A stretch of 63,544 nucleotides of DNA, the filler included, from Caldilineae bacterium (GTDB lineage Bacteria; Chloroflexota; Anaerolineae; DTLA01): the NCBI GenBank assembly GCA_037446815.1. It is 3 parts of 3 records of this genome, joined end to end, with 100 filler letters (N's around TTAATTAATTAA, not from the genome) between each part and the next. Parts side by side here need not be neighbours in the genome. Positions count along the whole stretch, not along the records: positions 1 to 24,794 come from JBBIHX010000031.1; 2 more parts are not named here. One strand, 5' to 3'. The position numbers and the translations under genes are program-made. Of this stretch, positions 2,974-9,590 are shown piece by piece. The notes beneath the pieces were generated by a model. It worked only from the letters and a program-made list of their open reading frames with translations. It made no database searches and was not told the DNA's origin. The stretch's first letter is position 1. Each line of letters opens with the position of its first letter.

Positions 2974-3999
2974 ATGACGGTTGAAGAATTCATGGACAGC
3001 CAGGTCAACCCGGAACCGATCCTCGTGGTGGAGGACGAGGATTCGGTGCGGAGCCTCCTGCTCCGAAGACTCACCCGCGCCGGCTTCACCGTAGTGGGAG
3101 CCGCCAACGGCATAGATGCCCTGGCCCTGCTCCGCGAACAGTGCTTCGGGGTCGTCCTCTCGGACATCAACATGCCCAAACTGAACGGGCTGGAACTCCT
3201 GCAAATCATCCGCGAGACCTACCCCGATGTCGTCGTCATCATGGTAACGGCCTACGGCGACCTTGATCATGCCATCTCGGCCATGCGGTTGGGCGCGTCG
3301 GACTATGTCGTGAAGCCGTTTGACCTGGATCAGATGATGCGCGCGGTGCAGCAGGCCCTGCGCCTGCGCCAGCGCAACCTGGCCCGCCGCTACATGGAGT
3401 TACACGCTCGCGCCCACCAGCCCCCAGAGACCGGCCAGCGGCTTCTCCTCAGCACCGTCATGGCCCTGGCCAACAGCCTGGAAGCCAAAGACCCGTACAC
3501 CGTGGGGCACTCGCAGCGGGTAGCCACCCTGGCCCAGCGACTGGCAGGCGCCCTGGGCCTCCCGGAAAACGAGCAGGAATACATCCGCATGGCGGGCCTG
3601 CTCCACGACATCGGCAAAATCGGCATTCGCGAGGCGGTCATCAACAAGCCCGGCCCGCTGACGCCCGCAGAGTATGCCCATATCCAGACCCACCCGCTCA
3701 TCAGCGAGCGGATTCTTGTACCGGTAGCAGAACTCAACGGCGCGCTCCGCATGATACGGAACCATCATGAGCATTGGGATGGCAGCGGATATCCCGACGG
3801 ACTCAAGGGCCTGGAAATCCCTGTGGGCGCGCGCATCTTGACCATTGCCGACGCCTACGATGCGATGACATCGCAACGCCCGTACCGGCCCCCTCTGCCT
3901 CACGAGGTAGCCCTTCGCGAGATAGAAAAAGGCGCCGGTCGGCACTTTGACCCGACACTGAGTCGGCTCTTCCTGGAGTTGATGGCGCAGCAACACTGA
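2974..3999 (+). CDS. Response regulator with HD-GYP c-di-GMP phosphodiesterase domain (RpfG-like)
   Basis: REC motifs VEDE, SDINMP, TAY and KPF. HD-GYP motifs HDIGK, HHEHWDGSGYP and ADAYDAMTS. Confidence 0.92.
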   Translation: MTVEEFMDSQVNPEPILVVEDEDSVRSLLLRRLTRAGFTVVGAANGIDALALLREQCFGVVLSDINMPKLNGLELLQIIRETYPDVVVIMVTAYGDLDHAISAMRLGASDYVVKPFDLDQMMRAVQQALRLRQRNLARRYMELHARAHQPPETGQRLLLSTVMALANSLEAKDPYTVGHSQRVATLAQRLAGALGLPENEQEYIRMAGLLHDIGKIGIREAVINKPGPLTPAEYAHIQTHPLISERILVPVAELNGALRMIRNHHEHWDGSGYPDGLKGLEIPVGARILTIADAYDAMTSQRPYRPPLPHEVALREIEKGAGRHFDPTLSRLFLELMAQQH

Positions 4000-4043: not shown

Positions 4044-4685
4044 ATGACGAACATCCCTGATGCAGCAACAGAAGGCGGCACAACACCGGACGAAACGCTC
4101 CGTGTGGAGATTCACACGGGCGACTACGTGGCGCTGGGGACGGTGGTTACCCGGCATCAGAGGCTCATGGATGTGCTGGAGAACCTGGCTTCCCCCTATC
4201 TGCGCCTGGAAAGCGCGCAGGTTCAGTTCCTTGGCCGGGGTAGCGCGCCCCAGGCCACGGACATTCTCCTCGTCAGCAGCGACCACGTTCGCATTGCCAT
4301 ACCCTACGAGGAGGAACGCGCCCCCGAAGCGGGAAGGCTACACCCGCGTTACGTCCCCAAATACCCTGTGGCCGCGTCGTTGTACATGGCAGACATGGAG
4401 ATAGAGGGCAACATTCACATCCGCGAGGGTGAAGACGCGTTCCTGGCGGCGCAGAACCTCTCGGAGCCGTTCATTGCCGTTACGGAAGCCCTCGTGCGAT
4501 ACCTGGACCCAAGGCGCTCGCTCCCATTCCGGTGTCCGGTGGTGATCGTGAACCGCAGATTTGTGAACCTAATCGCCTTGAGGCCACGGCCCAGAGACCA
4601 GGCCCGTTCTCGGCTGGAACGGCTCTTGGCCCAGTCCAGTTCCCTGGCCGCGCGTATGCACCGCGCACCCAGTTTATCGGCATGA
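4044..4685 (+). CDS. Hypothetical protein with two internal ~70-aa beta-rich repeats (DUF6812-like)
   Basis: Two similar halves (VEIHT...RLMDVLE...YLRLESA...LLVSSDHV / ASLYM...IEGNIH...FIAVTEA...IVNRRFV). Stop overlaps the next start (ATGA). Confidence 0.6.
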   Translation: MTNIPDAATEGGTTPDETLRVEIHTGDYVALGTVVTRHQRLMDVLENLASPYLRLESAQVQFLGRGSAPQATDILLVSSDHVRIAIPYEEERAPEAGRLHPRYVPKYPVAASLYMADMEIEGNIHIREGEDAFLAAQNLSEPFIAVTEALVRYLDPRRSLPFRCPVVIVNRRFVNLIALRPRPRDQARSRLERLLAQSSSLAARMHRAPSLSA

Positions 4686-5605
4686 TGGAGAACCGTCCCA
4701 TGGATGAACTGACCCTGCACACGGCAGAAGGACGCGATGCCATCCAGAACCTAGACGAACGCGAACTGTGCCTGATTCCGCTGCTGGGCACGGGCATTAG
4801 CGGGATGCGCGTGCTCACGCAGCGCGAAACCGTCATCGGGCGCCAGCCCGGCGTTGACCTTCTCGTGCGCGATCCGAGGGTCTCACGACAGCACTGCAAG
4901 ATCGTGCTCACCAACGCCGGCCCGAAGATCGTGGACCTGGACAGCCGTAACGGGACCTTCGTCAACGACGTTCAGGTGAAAGAAACGTACCTGAACGACA
5001 GCGACCTGATTCGCGTGGGCGACACGGTTTTCCGCATCCGGTACGTGGACCGCGTGGAGGTGGAGCGCCAGGAGGAACTCTACCGCAAAGCAACCCGCGA
5101 CAGTTTGACAGGATTACACAATCGGCAGTATCTTCTGGAGCGTTTGCACGAGGAACTGGCGCGGGCGCGACGACATCATTTCCCGGTATCGTTCCTGATG
5201 ATAGACATTGACCACTTCAAACTCATCAACGATCGGCTTGGCCACGCCGCGGGAGACCGAGCGCTGGCCGTGGTAGCCGGTATCCTGCGCGACAACGTGC
5301 GCAGCGAGGACACCGTCGCGCGCTACGGCGGGGAGGAATTTGCGGTCCTTGCGCCGTTCTCCGACGTCAGCGGCGCCCGCGTCCTCGCCGAGCGACTGCG
5401 CGCGCTCGTGGAGCGAAACGAATGGTCCAAAGGCGAAGGCCGAATGCCCATCACCGTCAGCATCGGCGCGGCCACGTTCCCCAATGACGCAGACGCGGGC
5501 CTGGACCTCATCCACAAGTCCGACATCGCCCTGTATCGCGCCAAGCACGCCGGGCGCAATCGCGTTGTGAACTACTCCGCCAGCGGCGAGGACACAGAGA
5601 GGTAA
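4682..5605 (+). CDS. FHA-domain diguanylate cyclase
   Basis: FHA motifs IGR, VSRQH and SRNGT. GGDEF domain has DSLTGLHNR, DIDHFK, I-site RSED and an intact GGEEF. Confidence 0.9.
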   Translation: MMENRPMDELTLHTAEGRDAIQNLDERELCLIPLLGTGISGMRVLTQRETVIGRQPGVDLLVRDPRVSRQHCKIVLTNAGPKIVDLDSRNGTFVNDVQVKETYLNDSDLIRVGDTVFRIRYVDRVEVERQEELYRKATRDSLTGLHNRQYLLERLHEELARARRHHFPVSFLMIDIDHFKLINDRLGHAAGDRALAVVAGILRDNVRSEDTVARYGGEEFAVLAPFSDVSGARVLAERLRALVERNEWSKGEGRMPITVSIGAATFPNDADAGLDLIHKSDIALYRAKHAGRNRVVNYSASGEDTER

Positions 5606-5610
5606 CATCC

Positions 5611-8600
5611 GTGATCAGCGAAGGCTCTCGCCAGAACCGCATAGGCCCGTATCGGCTCATCCGCGTCATCGGGCGCGGCGGCATGGGCGCCGTCTACCTT
5701 GCCGAACATCAGCAGACCCACCGTGAGGTGGCGCTCAAGGTATTGCCACCGGAGTACGCGGCCATGCCCGACCGTGTGGCGCGATTCCTCCGCGAAGGAA
5801 TGGCGGGCGCCCGCCTGCGCCACAAGAACATCGTGGAGACCTACGAGGTCGGCGAGGACAACGGTGCCTACTTCATCGCGCTGGAGTACATCCAGGGCGA
5901 GAGTCTGCGCGAACGCATGGACAGGGGCGCGTTGGACCTGCGCACGTCGCTGGACATCGCCCTGCAGGTCAGCGAGGCCCTTGCCCACGCCCACGCCCAC
6001 CATATCGTCCACCGCGACCTGAAGCCCAGCAACATCATGCTCACCGCCGACGGCACGGCCAAGGTCATGGACTTTGGCCTGGCCAAGGTGGCCGACGCCT
6101 CGGCGGTAACGATGGCCGGCGTCCTCATGGGGACAGCGGCCTACATCTCGCCCGAGCAGGCCCGCGGCGACGCCACCGACGGCCGGAGCGACCTGTACTC
6201 GCTCGGCGTCATGCTCTATGAGATGATCAGCGGGCAACTCCCCTTCTCCGCCGAAAGCACGGCCTCGCTGATTTTCAAGCACATCAACGAGCAGCCCACA
6301 CCCGTCCGACGGCTTGCGCCCGAGGTTCTGCCCGCCGTGGACGGCCTCGTGTGGCGGCTTCTGCACAAGCAGCCCGAACAGCGATTCCAATCCGCCGTTG
6401 AACTGGCGTCGGCCATTCGCCTGTGCATGGAGGCGTTGGACAAGGGAACCGTCCTGCCGGCGACCCTGTTTGACCCCACGCTCCCGTCCGACGAAACCCT
6501 GGCGACGTCGCAAATCCCTCTTGTCGGCCGGGAGCGGGAAATGACACTCCTGCGCCAGGCGCTAGACCGGGCCCGCCAGTCCAAGGGGGGCCTGTCCCTC
6601 ATCAGCGGCGAGGCCGGGCTCGGCAAGACGCGGCTGGTCGTAGAAACCCAGCGGGAGGCGCAAAGCGCGGGCTTCCTGTGCCTGACCGGGCATTGCCTGT
6701 ACCAAGAAGACCCCAACCCCTACCTGCCTTTTGTGGAGATTCTGCAATCGTACCTGGACACGCGCGAGACCATGGTGGGCACGCCCGAGGCCGACGACAT
6801 CATCACCCACCTGATTACCCGCCTGTCCAACTTCCTGCCCTATGCGGCAAATGCCGGGACGCCCATCGCGCAGGACGCGCTCGGGTGGGCCGATGCCCAG
6901 ACCGCCCTGTTTGAAACCATCCGCCAGGTGCTCACCGCGCTGGCCCAGAAGCAGCCGCTGCTCCTGTTCGTGGACGACCTACAGTGGGCCAGCGTCGCGA
7001 CGCTGCGCCTGCTGCACTACCTGGCCCGCAACATTCAGGCCGCGCCCATCCTGCTCATCGGCACATACCGCGAGGAAGACGTGCAGGAGGAAGCCGGCGC
7101 CGAACCTCACCCGCTGCAAGAAGTCATGCGGCGCATGAGCCGTGAGCGCCTGTTTGAACGCATCACCCTCTCGCCGCTGAGCCGCGAGCAGACCGATGCG
7201 CTGGTGAAACATGTGCTGCCGGGCGCGCCGGAGGATGCCGATTTCCTGGCGCGCGTGTACGCCGAAACCGAAGGCAACCCCTTCTTCATCCTTGAGGCCC
7301 TGCGGATGTGGCAGGAAGAAGGGCAACTGGTGTACACCGAGGCCGGCTGGCGCCTCATCGGAAAGCCCGAGGAGATGCGCGTGCCCCAGCGCGTGCACGA
7401 CGTCATCGTTCGGCGGCTCCAGCGCCTGGACGAGACAAGCCGCGAGATACTGGACGTGGCCGCCGTTACCGGGCGCCGATTCACCGTGGAGACCATCAGC
7501 GCCGCGCTGGCGCTGCCAAAAGTGGAATTGCTGCGCCGCCTCGGGCGACTGGAGAAGAATCACCAACTCATCGCCTTTGAGAGCGGCACGTACACATTTA
7601 CCCACCACCTGATCCGAGATGTCCTGTACGACGAACTGGCCGAGCCGCTGCGCGTGGAGTATCATCTCATCATCGCCAAGCGGCTGGAAGAACTGTTCGC
7701 CGGGCGGCTGGAGGAAGTCGCCTACGACCTGGCGCACCACTTCTACCAGGGCGCGGACTACCGCACCGGACTCCGCTACGCGCAGATGGCCACGGAACGC
7801 GCCGAACGCCAGTGGGCGCTGGAAGAGGCGCTCCACTTCAACCATTTGGCTCTGGATTCTATCGCCCACCTGCCGAGCGACCCCCACTACACCCGACAGG
7901 AGTGCGAACTTCGCCAGCGGCGCGCCGCGCTGCTGCAGGTGGCGGGCGACCTCCAGGGAGCGCTTGCGGAATTGGAGCGGGCGCGTGCCCTTAGCGAGCA
8001 GCAGGCCGACGCCGCGCGCGAGGCCGAAGTGCTGACGGAAATCGCGCGCATCCACGCCCGAAGAAGCGACTGGGATGCCGCGCTGCAACTCGCGTCGCGC
8101 GCCATGGCCATCGCCGAGAAAGCCGGCCACAAGCCCATCATCGCCCAGGCCCTGTCGGTGCGCGCCATCGTCCTCTTCCAGACGGGCAACTGGGACGATG
8201 CGCTGGACAGCCTCCGTTGGGCAGAAGGGCTTGTGGAGGGCGATGAGCATGCCCTCCTGCGGGCGCGCATCCTGGGGAATATGGGCAACGTTCTGGATGC
8301 GCAGGGCAACAAGGAAGAGGCCATCCGCCACTATCGCCAGGCCATCCGCATCTTTGAGGCCGGAGGCCGTCTGCTGGACAGCGCGCGCGGCTCGCTGAAC
8401 CTCGGGTTCGTCTATGCGTCCATGGCGAAGCCCGACGAGGCTCGCGCCTGCTACCAAGACGCCCTCGCCATCTTCCGCAAGGTCGGCGACGTGTATCACA
8501 CAGCCCTCACCCACCAGCATCTCGCCGAACTGGAACTGGCCCAGGGCAACATCGCGGCGGCCGCCGACCTGTGCAAAACCGCGCGCGACACGTTCCTGCG

Positions 8601-8931
8601 CATCGGCGACGAGTTGGGCACCGCCGACACGAGCCGAATCCTGGGGCGCATCGCCGCGCGCAACCGCGACATCCCGCAGGCGCAGAAGCACTACGCCGAA
8701 GCCATCGCATCGTACGGCGAGTTGGACGACCGTCTCAACTGGGCCGAAACCTCGCGCGAACTCGGTCGGTTCCTCGCCGAATCCAACACCACGCCCGAGG
8801 CGCTTCAATACTTGCAGGCAGCAGCCGACGCCTACGAAGCCCTCGGCCTGACAAAGGAGGCAACAGAAACCAAACACGAAATCAGCGTGCTCAAACAGGG
8901 TGTGCCTATGGGCGGCGCGTCTGCCCGCTGA
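5611..8931 (+). CDS. Ser/Thr protein kinase - AAA+/STAND-like ATPase - TPR fusion
   Basis: Kinase motifs GRGGMG, VALK, HRDLKPSN, DFG and YISPE. Walker A GEAGLGKT, Walker B LFVDDLQWA, GNPFF, then a long C-terminal TPR array. Confidence 0.9.
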   Translation: MISEGSRQNRIGPYRLIRVIGRGGMGAVYLAEHQQTHREVALKVLPPEYAAMPDRVARFLREGMAGARLRHKNIVETYEVGEDNGAYFIALEYIQGESLRERMDRGALDLRTSLDIALQVSEALAHAHAHHIVHRDLKPSNIMLTADGTAKVMDFGLAKVADASAVTMAGVLMGTAAYISPEQARGDATDGRSDLYSLGVMLYEMISGQLPFSAESTASLIFKHINEQPTPVRRLAPEVLPAVDGLVWRLLHKQPEQRFQSAVELASAIRLCMEALDKGTVLPATLFDPTLPSDETLATSQIPLVGREREMTLLRQALDRARQSKGGLSLISGEAGLGKTRLVVETQREAQSAGFLCLTGHCLYQEDPNPYLPFVEILQSYLDTRETMVGTPEADDIITHLITRLSNFLPYAANAGTPIAQDALGWADAQTALFETIRQVLTALAQKQPLLLFVDDLQWASVATLRLLHYLARNIQAAPILLIGTYREEDVQEEAGAEPHPLQEVMRRMSRERLFERITLSPLSREQTDALVKHVLPGAPEDADFLARVYAETEGNPFFILEALRMWQEEGQLVYTEAGWRLIGKPEEMRVPQRVHDVIVRRLQRLDETSREILDVAAVTGRRFTVETISAALALPKVELLRRLGRLEKNHQLIAFESGTYTFTHHLIRDVLYDELAEPLRVEYHLIIAKRLEELFAGRLEEVAYDLAHHFYQGADYRTGLRYAQMATERAERQWALEEALHFNHLALDSIAHLPSDPHYTRQECELRQRRAALLQVAGDLQGALAELERARALSEQQADAAREAEVLTEIARIHARRSDWDAALQLASRAMAIAEKAGHKPIIAQALSVRAIVLFQTGNWDDALDSLRWAEGLVEGDEHALLRARILGNMGNVLDAQGNKEEAIRHYRQAIRIFEAGGRLLDSARGSLNLGFVYASMAKPDEARACYQDALAIFRKVGDVYHTALTHQHLAELELAQGNIAAAADLCKTARDTFLRIGDELGTADTSRILGRIAARNRDIPQAQKHYAEAIASYGELDDRLNWAETSRELGRFLAESNTTPEALQYLQAAADAYEALGLTKEATETKHEISVLKQGVPMGGASAR

Positions 8932-9101: not shown

Positions 9102-9497
9102 ATGAAACTGAATAAGAAACAACTCACCATTGCGCTGCTGCTGGCGCTCATCCTGGTCATGACACTGTCCGTCATGCCAGCATCAGCCGGCGGCAAGACC
9201 ATCGTCGTCCAGAAGTTCATACGGGCCAACACCGGGGGAGTTCTGCGAGCAGCGGGGATCACCCTCGTCATACCTGCCAATGCACTCCCTCACAACGCGC
9301 TGGTTACCATGAAGATCAACCGCGACCAGCGTGAGGTGGAGTTCTCTCCCGACATGACATTCGCGCGGCCCGTGTATGTGAATTTCGGATTCCAGGTGAA
9401 CGGCCTCAACTACTGGGACGGGAGCCGCTGGGTTCCCGTCCAGATGGTGGGCCGAACGGCGATCCTGAACCACTTCTCTCGTTACGCGTGGTGGTAA
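9102..9497 (+). CDS. Small secreted ZU5-like protein with C-terminal HFS motif
   Basis: Sec signal ending ASA and GGAGGT RBS. GG...LVIPANAL...F.RPV...WDGSRW...LNHFSRY resembles ZU5/bacterial HFS domains. Confidence 0.7.
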   Translation: MKLNKKQLTIALLLALILVMTLSVMPASAGGKTIVVQKFIRANTGGVLRAAGITLVIPANALPHNALVTMKINRDQREVEFSPDMTFARPVYVNFGFQVNGLNYWDGSRWVPVQMVGRTAILNHFSRYAWW

Positions 9498-9553: not shown

Positions 9554-9590
9554 GAAGCCCCCGACCCGTGACTCGGGGGCTTCTTATTCT
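9554..9590 (+). terminator. Probable intrinsic terminator
   Basis: GAAGCCCCCGA-loop-TCGGGGGCTTC hairpin followed by TTATTCT, between convergent genes. Confidence 0.7.

Follow-up and report, generated by a model that had tools for sequence, protein, structure and literature searches.

The window studied here is a stretch of 63,544 nucleotides (nt), filler included, from a Caldilineae bacterium (assembly GCA_037446815.1; genome G000). Its bases 1–24794 correspond to contig C31, to which the analysis of the window was confined. The source is a 3.19-Mb metagenome-assembled genome (MAG) of 265 contigs that is 93.6% complete, and near-identical database proteins, at 91% and 87% identity, carry the source labels 'Chloroflexi bacterium' and 'Anaerolineae bacterium', respectively. 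A block of five genes on the + strand encodes, in order, a response regulator with an HD-GYP domain (RR-HD-GYP), a DUF6812 protein, an FHA-GGDEF diguanylate cyclase, a Pkinase-AAA_16-TPR protein and a small secreted protein. The cyclase and the kinase form a pair that is conserved in two families, and the cassette is probably a conserved cytoplasmic unit that places the synthesis of cyclic di-GMP (c-di-GMP) under Ser/Thr phosphorylation control. The two central genes comprise the following features.

4682–5605, + strand: tail-FHA-GGDEF diguanylate cyclase, 307 amino acids from 4682 (likelier 301 amino acids from the ATG at 4700), assigned by Pfam
4709–4723, + strand: conserved N-terminal tail motif LTLHT (T5 and T8, counted from the ATG at 4700), candidate phospho-acceptor and FHA ligand, present in 16/16 orthologues
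4829–5020, + strand: FHA domain with the phosphothreonine (pThr)-binding residues R54, S68, R69 and N90 (Pfam, motifs)
5090–5563, + strand: GGDEF catalytic domain, with GGEEF at 5327–5341 and the RxxD I-site at 5300–5311 (Pfam, motifs)
5611–8931, + strand: Hanks-type Ser/Thr kinase with an AAA_16 STAND NTPase and TPR, 1106 amino acids (Pfam, motifs, model)
5650–6390, + strand: kinase catalytic domain (Pfam, motifs)
6517–7059, + strand: AAA_16 nucleotide-binding domain of the STAND core (Pfam; Walker A at residues 333–340, Walker B at 451–456)
7918–8880, + strand: TPR array, presumed sensor (Pfam TPR_12 in five stretches, TPR_1/2/10)

The spacing of the two genes is operon-like. The stop codon of the cyclase gene (TAA, 5603–5605) is followed by the five bases CATCC and then by the GTG start codon of the kinase gene at 5611, which is preceded by GAGAGG. 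The source genome contains six Pkinase, four FHA, four GGDEF and one PP2C matches. From a crude count of six Pkinase matches among about 2,400 non-overlapping open reading frames (ORFs) of at least 100 amino acids, the chance of finding a kinase as the next gene downstream is roughly estimated at 0.25%.

In the cyclase, residues of the domains are numbered from the ATG at 4682 and the tail threonines from the ATG at 4700. Pfam detects an FHA domain (63.3 bits, residues 50–113) and a GGDEF domain (166.6 bits, residues 137–294). The FHA motifs G53-R54, S68-R69-Q-H71 and N90-G91-T92 are intact and invariant in alignment A1. The GGDEF domain bears GGEEF at residues 216–220, with the I-site R207-S-E-D210 five residues ahead of it, as well as D175/D177, N183 and D192, the last two of which are invariant in the same alignment. 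Judged by its motifs, the GGDEF domain is predicted to be catalytically competent. A preliminary description of this DNA had reported the FHA motifs (GR, SRQH and NGT), GGEEF and the RxxD I-site as intact, and all of them are present. It had also begun the cyclase ORF at 4682; the ORF is real, but translation most likely starts six codons further on, at the ATG at 4700, because a GGAG lies 9–14 nt upstream of this codon and the database orthologues are 301 amino acids long and start with M-[DE]-[DE]-LTLHT. The stop codon of the DUF6812 gene lies 14 nt ahead of this likely start.

The best solved relative of the cyclase is 6hbz_A (DgcB), with an E value of 3.3e-42 over residues 43–295, spanning both domains. 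As described in the available parts of the report on DgcB (Bd0742 of Bdellovibrio bacteriovorus; PDB 6HBZ), the phosphorylated N-terminal tail of this enzyme (pT14) binds its own FHA domain and thereby activates it (Meek et al. 2019, PMC6733907). The phosphopeptide complex was solved, and a constitutively active tail-mimic mutant designed from the complex was confirmed by enzyme assay (PMC6733907). The tail rule derived for DgcB asks for a hydrophobic residue at −3, Glu at −2, Ser at +1 and hydrophobic residues at +2/+3 (PMC6733907, section 9). The cyclase in the window resembles DgcB in its length of about 300 amino acids, its consensus FHA pocket, GG[D/E]EF and RxxD I-site, and also in bearing a short disordered tail with a conserved Thr about 17–20 residues before the FHA core. 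Compared at the sequence level, it is a further enzyme of the DgcB kind. It differs in that its host is a Chloroflexi MAG and not a predator, and in that its tail reads LTLHT, as compared to hydrophobic-E-x-T-S-hydrophobic-hydrophobic in DgcB. Furthermore, a candidate kinase is co-encoded here, whereas the DgcB kinase had not been identified in 2019 and, according to the available parts of the paper, none is encoded beside DgcB (PMC6733907).

The tail of the cyclase reads M-D-E-L-T5-L-H-T8. The start M-[DE]-[DE]-LTLHT is invariant in 16/16 orthologues (75–100% identity), while the next 13 positions are variable, and the invariance of LTLHT amid a drifting tail therefore favours a selected short motif. 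In alignments, LTLHT coincides with the tail Thr that more distantly related FHA-GGDEF proteins carry. In 100 such tails, T-x-x-[ILVMF] occurs in 62, as compared to 37.5 ± 4.6 after shuffling (500 shuffles, maximum 52); the tails are related sequences, and the count is thus an indication and not a probability. The tails of the orthologues in the second family, f5, read E-E-T-[VLA]-F-L or S-K-T-I-M-V and fit the DgcB rule.

A second FHA-GGDEF gene occurs in the source genome on contig C9 (10954–11739 on the − strand; L035:7940–8872, − strand), and its product is 41% identical to the cyclase. In this paralogue, which we regard as catalytically dead, the FHA domain is intact, but SAGEV replaces GGEEF in a degenerate GGDEF site, and RxxD is missing. 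Its tail, E-Q-T-I-M-I, is canonical, and the paralogue is kept in all of the genus genomes, next to CoA-transferase and B12-binding genes and with no signalling genes around it. Possible roles are a c-di-GMP-blind scaffold under phospho-regulation and a second target of the kinase.

The protein encoded downstream, numbered from the GTG at 5611, matches Pkinase (175.7 bits, residues 14–260), AAA_16 (98.3 bits, residues 303–483) and TPR_12 (111.4 bits, five stretches) in Pfam, while TPR_MalT reaches 39.6 bits, under the cut-off of 45. The kinase domain is PknB-like (E 4e-58) and contains GRGGMGAV (21–28), VALK (K43), HRDLKPSN (134–141), DFG (154–156) and SPE (180–182), with the activation segment SAVT167MAGVLMGT175. 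K43, H134-R135-D136, N141, D154-F155-G156, T167 and T175 are invariant in 25 aligned homologues. The NTPase carries Walker A (GEAGLGKT, 333–340) and Walker B (LLFVDD, 451–456). The best 19-residue Kyte-Doolittle mean of the whole protein is 1.37; with no window above this value, the protein is taken to be soluble. A kinase gene 5 nt downstream with all of the Hanks motifs, Walker A/B and TPRs, and with no obvious transmembrane segment, is also what the preliminary description had put forward, and the motifs, the Pfam matches and the CATCC gap agree with it.

Residues 290–720 were modelled from 43 sequences with a pLDDT of 87.4. In Foldseek the model matches CED-4 (E 7.4e-11), PH0952 (E 1.4e-10, TM 0.50), Avs3 (8dgc, E 2.8e-9), Apaf-1 (TM 0.57) and MalT (TM 0.57/0.59, root-mean-square deviation (rmsd) 6.6), and ORC/Cdc6 AAA+ proteins score too, at about 1e-8. 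In this predicted structure, the NOD fold, comprising nucleotide-binding, helical and winged-helix domains, is like that of solved STAND proteins. A sequence search of the PDB with residues 290–1106 returned TPR proteins only, and no solved NOD at E 1e-3. Among relatives of the AAA_16-TPR core, the N-terminal output is a kinase, a class III cyclase, SARP, wHTH, LuxR, a KaiC-like domain or a histidine kinase, and the protein belongs to the regulatory, MalT/AfsR-like branch of STAND proteins.

The best NCBIfam match is TIGR03903, 'TOMM system kinase/cyclase fusion protein', at 355 bits, with residues 292–885 on profile positions 471–1056. This score is far below the cut-off of 705.75 bits, and the kinase protein is not a member. 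The name of the family, a kinase joined to a nucleotide cyclase, recalls the pair in the window, but the matched stretch corresponds to the AAA_16 and TPR parts. The cyclase of the TIGR03903 family is of the class III type, whereas the cyclase here is a separate GGDEF gene.

The arrangement can be compared with further known systems. As in MalT and PH0952 (PDB 8BOB and 6MFV; PMC6468293), a superposable NOD with Walker A/B is followed by a TPR array; unlike MalT and PH0952, which have a DNA-binding output, the output here is a protein kinase. As in PknG-OdhI/GarA of Actinobacteria, a soluble Hanks kinase with C-terminal TPR couples a signal to the phosphorylation of an FHA protein, and GarA and OdhI bind their own N-terminal phospho-tails through their own FHA domains, as stated in the available parts of that source (PMC8546545). 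PknG has no STAND NTPase, and OdhI/GarA is a stand-alone inhibitor of a metabolic enzyme, whereas the FHA protein here is a cyclase. A further precedent is a published single polypeptide that joins a Hanks kinase to a tail-FHA-GGDEF, implying the same kinase-to-cyclase logic; the accessible text describes it without STAND-TPR, while here the two functions are encoded by two genes and the kinase carries NOD and TPR (PMC6733907).

The gene block is conserved beyond the source genome. In the four other genus genomes (G001–G004), all five genes and the neighbouring M20 peptidase gene are syntenic (4/4), giving 5/5 with the source genome, and the nitroreductase and 7TM-PAS genes are kept in 3/4 (one contig ends). 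These genomes are close to one another (84–91% identity), and genus synteny alone says little. Among 401 genomes of the class, orthologues of the cyclase (E 1e-96 or better) occur solely in families f1 (5/5) and f5 (4/5). A search with the NOD-TPR region gave matches at E 1e-60 or better in 63/401 class genomes, a tally that takes in the unpublished genome G388, and matches of 41–100% identity were found solely in f1 (5/5) and f5 (3/5).

In f5 the block is kept at 41–57% protein identity with different flanks. In G330, the order is HTH-REC, DUF6812, FHA-GGDEF, kinase-AAA_16-TPR and small secreted protein. In this genome, the cyclase shares 53% identity with its counterpart in the window and the kinase 45% over 1073 amino acids, the kinase gene begins 14 nt before the cyclase gene ends, and the flanks (M50 peptidase, zinc-ribbon protein, subtilase and permease) are unrelated. 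Two more genomes, G192 and G055, are consistent with the block: their contigs break in or before the kinase gene, and the rest of the kinase lies on another contig. In G008 (96% complete) no orthologue of the cyclase, the kinase or the DUF6812 protein was found. Given the matching presence and absence in the 401 genomes and the order kept in a second family with unrelated flanks, the cyclase and the kinase are co-inherited, apart from one genome (G368), and are not chance neighbours. The two had been proposed as a pair from the sequence of the window, and they prove to be a conserved unit in two families.

In the mechanism that we infer, the TPR array of the 1106-amino-acid protein would read a cytoplasmic cue, and the MalT/Apaf-like STAND core would swap ADP for ATP and multimerise. 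The N-terminal Hanks kinase domains would be brought together and autophosphorylate T167 in the activation loop. The active kinase would then phosphorylate a Thr of LTLHT (T5 or T8) in the disordered tail of the cyclase, and the FHA pocket (R54, S68, R69 and N90) of the same or the partner subunit would capture the phospho-tail, as in DgcB. Release or re-packing of the FHA domain would let two GGDEF domains meet productively and form c-di-GMP. The RxxD I-site would limit this output and the upstream RR-HD-GYP phosphodiesterase would oppose it, while phosphorylation would presumably be reset by the sole PP2C phosphatase detected in the genome.

Several observations weigh against this mechanism. 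The first concerns the acceptor site, which the preliminary description had sought in a Thr of the tail (DELTLHT). The match to the DgcB mechanism and the invariance of LTLHT speak for that choice, but T5, with E at −2, is followed by L, H and T at +1 to +3. With no hydrophobic residue at +2/+3, the genus tail does not fit the consensus of DgcB, GarA and OdhI, and it is among the 38/100 tails without T-x-x-[ILVMF]. The true input could also come from any of the other five kinases of the genome. In G368 (f5, 80% complete), an intact cyclase gene lies beside an HD-GYP gene, and the kinase is cut to a 78-amino-acid stub (L117, G368:C21, 2080–2480), which continues into a remnant of the small secreted protein, namely its C-terminal part. 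No DUF6812 orthologue was found in this genome, and no kinase orthologue elsewhere in it. Either a deletion of about 3 kb, after which the cyclase persisted without the kinase, or an assembly collapse would account for this locus.

Comparison with other lineages points in the same direction. Genome contigs were scanned with the GGDEF-core patterns of alignment A1, yielding 80 loci, mostly generic GGDEF; FHA was called by tblastn at 1e-4 in 7/80, a conservative count in which some loci matched from residue 35–58 onward are uncounted. A Hanks kinase lies within 10 kb of the FHA-GGDEF gene in 2/7 of these loci, and near 4/73 GGDEF loci without an FHA match. One of the two (L036, Polyangia) has a divergent kinase adjoining the FHA-GGDEF gene, and in the other (L037) the kinase is a 164-amino-acid fragment 3 kb away. 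A metagenome scan with a 5-sequence FHA alignment, which reached only distant FHA proteins of 28–48% identity, found no new orthologue of the cyclase. Among its FHA-GGDEF loci, a kinase occurs in 1/19, or in 1/8 of the loci of at least 6 kb. In that single metagenome locus (L165:1536–4986), a Hanks kinase-HEAT gene comes after two tandem FHA-GGDEF genes and overlaps the second by 4 nt, which makes it an independent kinase/FHA-cyclase operon. As independent recurrences of the pairing, L165 and L036 speak for the proposed mechanism. Overall, kinase adjacency outside the lineage amounts to 3/15 FHA-GGDEF loci; it is therefore an exception that has arisen more than once, and no family rule. The outgroup kinases closest to the one in the window (37% identity, family f32; L219–L221 in G357, G277 and G254) lie downstream of a GAF-HisKA-HATPase histidine kinase gene and a REC gene in 3/3 cases, and no FHA, GGDEF or DUF6812 was detected at these three loci. 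The kinase clade is therefore not dedicated to FHA cyclases, and the slot upstream of it is filled by different signalling partners in each family.

The poor fit of the genus tail to the FHA ligand rule leaves room for another use of the same parts, possible though unlikely, in which the FHA domain docks on a pThr of the autophosphorylated kinase, the multimerised STAND protein gathers cyclases, and their GGDEF domains dimerise by proximity. In its favour, STAND proteins are described, in the available parts of the source, as forming multimeric hubs by which target macromolecules are activated (PMC6468293); MalT, Apaf-1 and CED-4 are among the matches of the NOD model, and T167 is invariant in 25/25 homologues. 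However, the residue at +3 of T167 is G in every one of the 25, which makes T167 an atypical FHA ligand, and T175 is an ordinary P+1-loop Thr; the activation-loop Thr, which the preliminary description had offered as the alternative ligand, is thus disfavoured. Threonines in the Thr-rich linker between the kinase and the NOD, including T-S-Q-I, were likewise considered as FHA docking sites and rejected, the linker sites being absent from the f5 orthologues. Docking on the kinase would also leave the conserved LTLHT unexplained.

Capture of the phosphorylated cyclase tail remains our preferred reading, and the partners of the outgroup kinases and the kinase-less locus in G368 bear on a further question, namely whether cyclase and kinase share more than a regulon. 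It is improbable that the kinase has RR-HD-GYP, DUF6812 or the C9 paralogue as its substrate, while a different one of the six kinases phosphorylates the cyclase, or the FHA domain of the cyclase reads a third protein. In favour of such an arrangement, genes with a REC domain precede the block in both f1 and f5, and the C9 paralogue combines an intact FHA domain with its canonical tail. Nevertheless, the cyclase stays joined to the kinase, with the 5-nt gap here and the 14-nt overlap in G330, across 41–57% identity; the N-terminal tails of the DUF6812 orthologues have no conserved Thr, and the C9 paralogue lacks signalling neighbours.

That the two are unrelated signalling genes lying side by side without functional coupling would agree with the 12/15 FHA-GGDEF loci elsewhere that have no kinase nearby, but is made very improbable by the rough single-genome chance given above, by the order kept in the second family with its unrelated flanks and by the matched presence and absence in the 401 genomes except G368. 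Finally, an NLR-like immune sensor, with the kinase-STAND-TPR protein as the detector of a phage or stress protein and c-di-GMP, raised by the cyclase, as an alarm or abortive-infection signal, is barely credible: although the NOD fold matches Avs3 and plant and animal NLRs, and PADLOC kinase models, PD-T4-6 and mad6 among them, match the kinase domain, the PADLOC matches listed (25 of 36 families) start at residues 6–22 and end at 263–343, which corresponds to the kinase fold, with none on the NTPase or TPR, the neighbourhood is metabolic and transport-related with no defence island or mobile-element setting, the AAA_16-TPR relatives carry regulatory outputs (SARP, wHTH, LuxR, class III cyclase and histidine kinase), and the block is stably inherited in two families and not patchy, so that the stress or phage trigger once suggested for this locus finds no footing.

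Gating of a GGDEF cyclase by pThr has been shown structurally for one enzyme, DgcB, as reported in the available parts of PMC6733907. One kinase kept gene-to-gene with an FHA-GGDEF cyclase across two families provides a soluble pair that can be reconstituted in vitro, and offers a likely switch for a type of enzyme without a controlling kinase named in the papers searched. In the full-text literature searched, which covered few subscription journals, no paper names a cognate kinase for any FHA-GGDEF enzyme, and the kinase-STAND-TPR link, the DUF6812 partner and the paired HD-GYP enzyme are not described. A review of pseudokinases contains nothing on GGDEF, AAA, TPR or STAND (PMC12599244), and the available portion of a STAND survey does not mention a STAND protein with a kinase effector (PMC13581612). 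The block links Ser/Thr phosphorylation, a His-Asp receiver and c-di-GMP, with a STAND NTPase as the upstream sensor; if true, such a sensor would be a new type of input for c-di-GMP control.

The remaining features of the block are as follows.

2974–3999, + strand: response regulator with an HD-GYP c-di-GMP phosphodiesterase domain, 341 amino acids (Pfam Response_reg 104.8 bits, HD_5 146.3 bits)
4044–4685, + strand: DUF6812 protein, 213 amino acids (Pfam DUF6812, 39 bits)
9102–9497, + strand: small secreted protein, 131 amino acids, with a signal peptide (Kyte-Doolittle 2.51 at residues 8–26) and its own GGAGG ribosome-binding site
9554–9583, + strand: terminator-like hairpin closing the + strand block (11 pairs, 8 G-C, then a T-rich tail)

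The RR-HD-GYP protein is of the RpfG type and retains D63, H210-D211 and HHEHWDGSGYP (262–274). Its gene lies upstream in 4/4 genus relatives, and an HD-GYP gene is also found upstream of the cyclase in G368. This phosphodiesterase is likely to be the antagonist of the cyclase. In the source genome, searches for PilZ and EAL domains gave no match, and HD-GYP was matched three times; on contig C13, a 926-amino-acid frame combines one of these HD-GYP matches with a GGDEF domain. This c-di-GMP network is small, with four GGDEF and three HD-GYP matches and no EAL or PilZ found, and the genome therefore probably has just two strong GGDEF matches, of which the cyclase is one.

The AlphaFold2 model of the DUF6812 protein (mean pLDDT 90.5) consists of two tandem Sm/LSm-like β-barrels and a C-terminal helix. 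Its best structural matches are Lsm proteins, with Z 7.8 and an rmsd of 2.3 over 58–62 residues, a score in the range where a common fold alone is possible, though the match list is uniformly Sm/Lsm/Hfq; Foldseek of the same model gave no match at E 0.001 or better. At E 1e-3 or better, 1.8 billion representatives yielded 95 relatives of the protein, and the domain occurs in 124/401 Chloroflexota genomes, a tally that takes in the unpublished genomes G652 and G556. Beyond this tally and that of the NOD-TPR search with G388, these three genomes support no claim made here. Orthologues lie directly upstream of the cyclase in G001–G004, G330, G192 and G055. In 20 sampled Chloroflexota DUF6812 loci (L119–L138), tblastn found no kinase, FHA or GGDEF gene, and DUF6812 is therefore not generally tied to the cyclase-kinase pair. 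A receiver-domain gene lies 0.4–1.6 kb upstream of DUF6812 in 5/20 of these loci, as well as in the window and in G330, and DUF6812 may be an undescribed partner of response regulators. The word DUF6812 was not found in the literature searched.

DUF6812 was also considered as a ligand of the FHA domain and rejected: the sole tail Thr near a T-x-x-V sits in β-strand 1 and is replaced by A/L in f5. A more ambitious version of the preferred mechanism would make the cassette a self-contained switch with NLR logic, running from STAND multimerisation through the kinase and the phospho-reading cyclase to a burst of c-di-GMP, with DUF6812 as a new adaptor or the missing c-di-GMP receptor; this we regard as doubtful.

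The small secreted protein has no Pfam, NCBIfam or PADLOC match. Homologues are encoded downstream of the kinase in G001–G004 and in G330, and the C-terminus HFSRYAWW is common to both families (9102–9497 in the window; L118:2687–3181, − strand).

The genes flanking the cassette lie on the opposite strand and are metabolic or transport genes. The neighbours include genes for a nitroreductase, an M20 peptidase, a peptide ABC transporter (Opp-type permeases and solute-binding protein), a formyltransferase and GAPDH. Near the start of the contig, a gene at 309–1610 (− strand) encodes a HisKA_7TM-PAS protein of 433 amino acids that ends without a HisKA or HATPase domain, and the ORF next to it (76–393, − strand) has no Pfam match. 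The HisKA_7TM-PAS gene may represent a split or truncated sensor kinase, or a genuine short protein.

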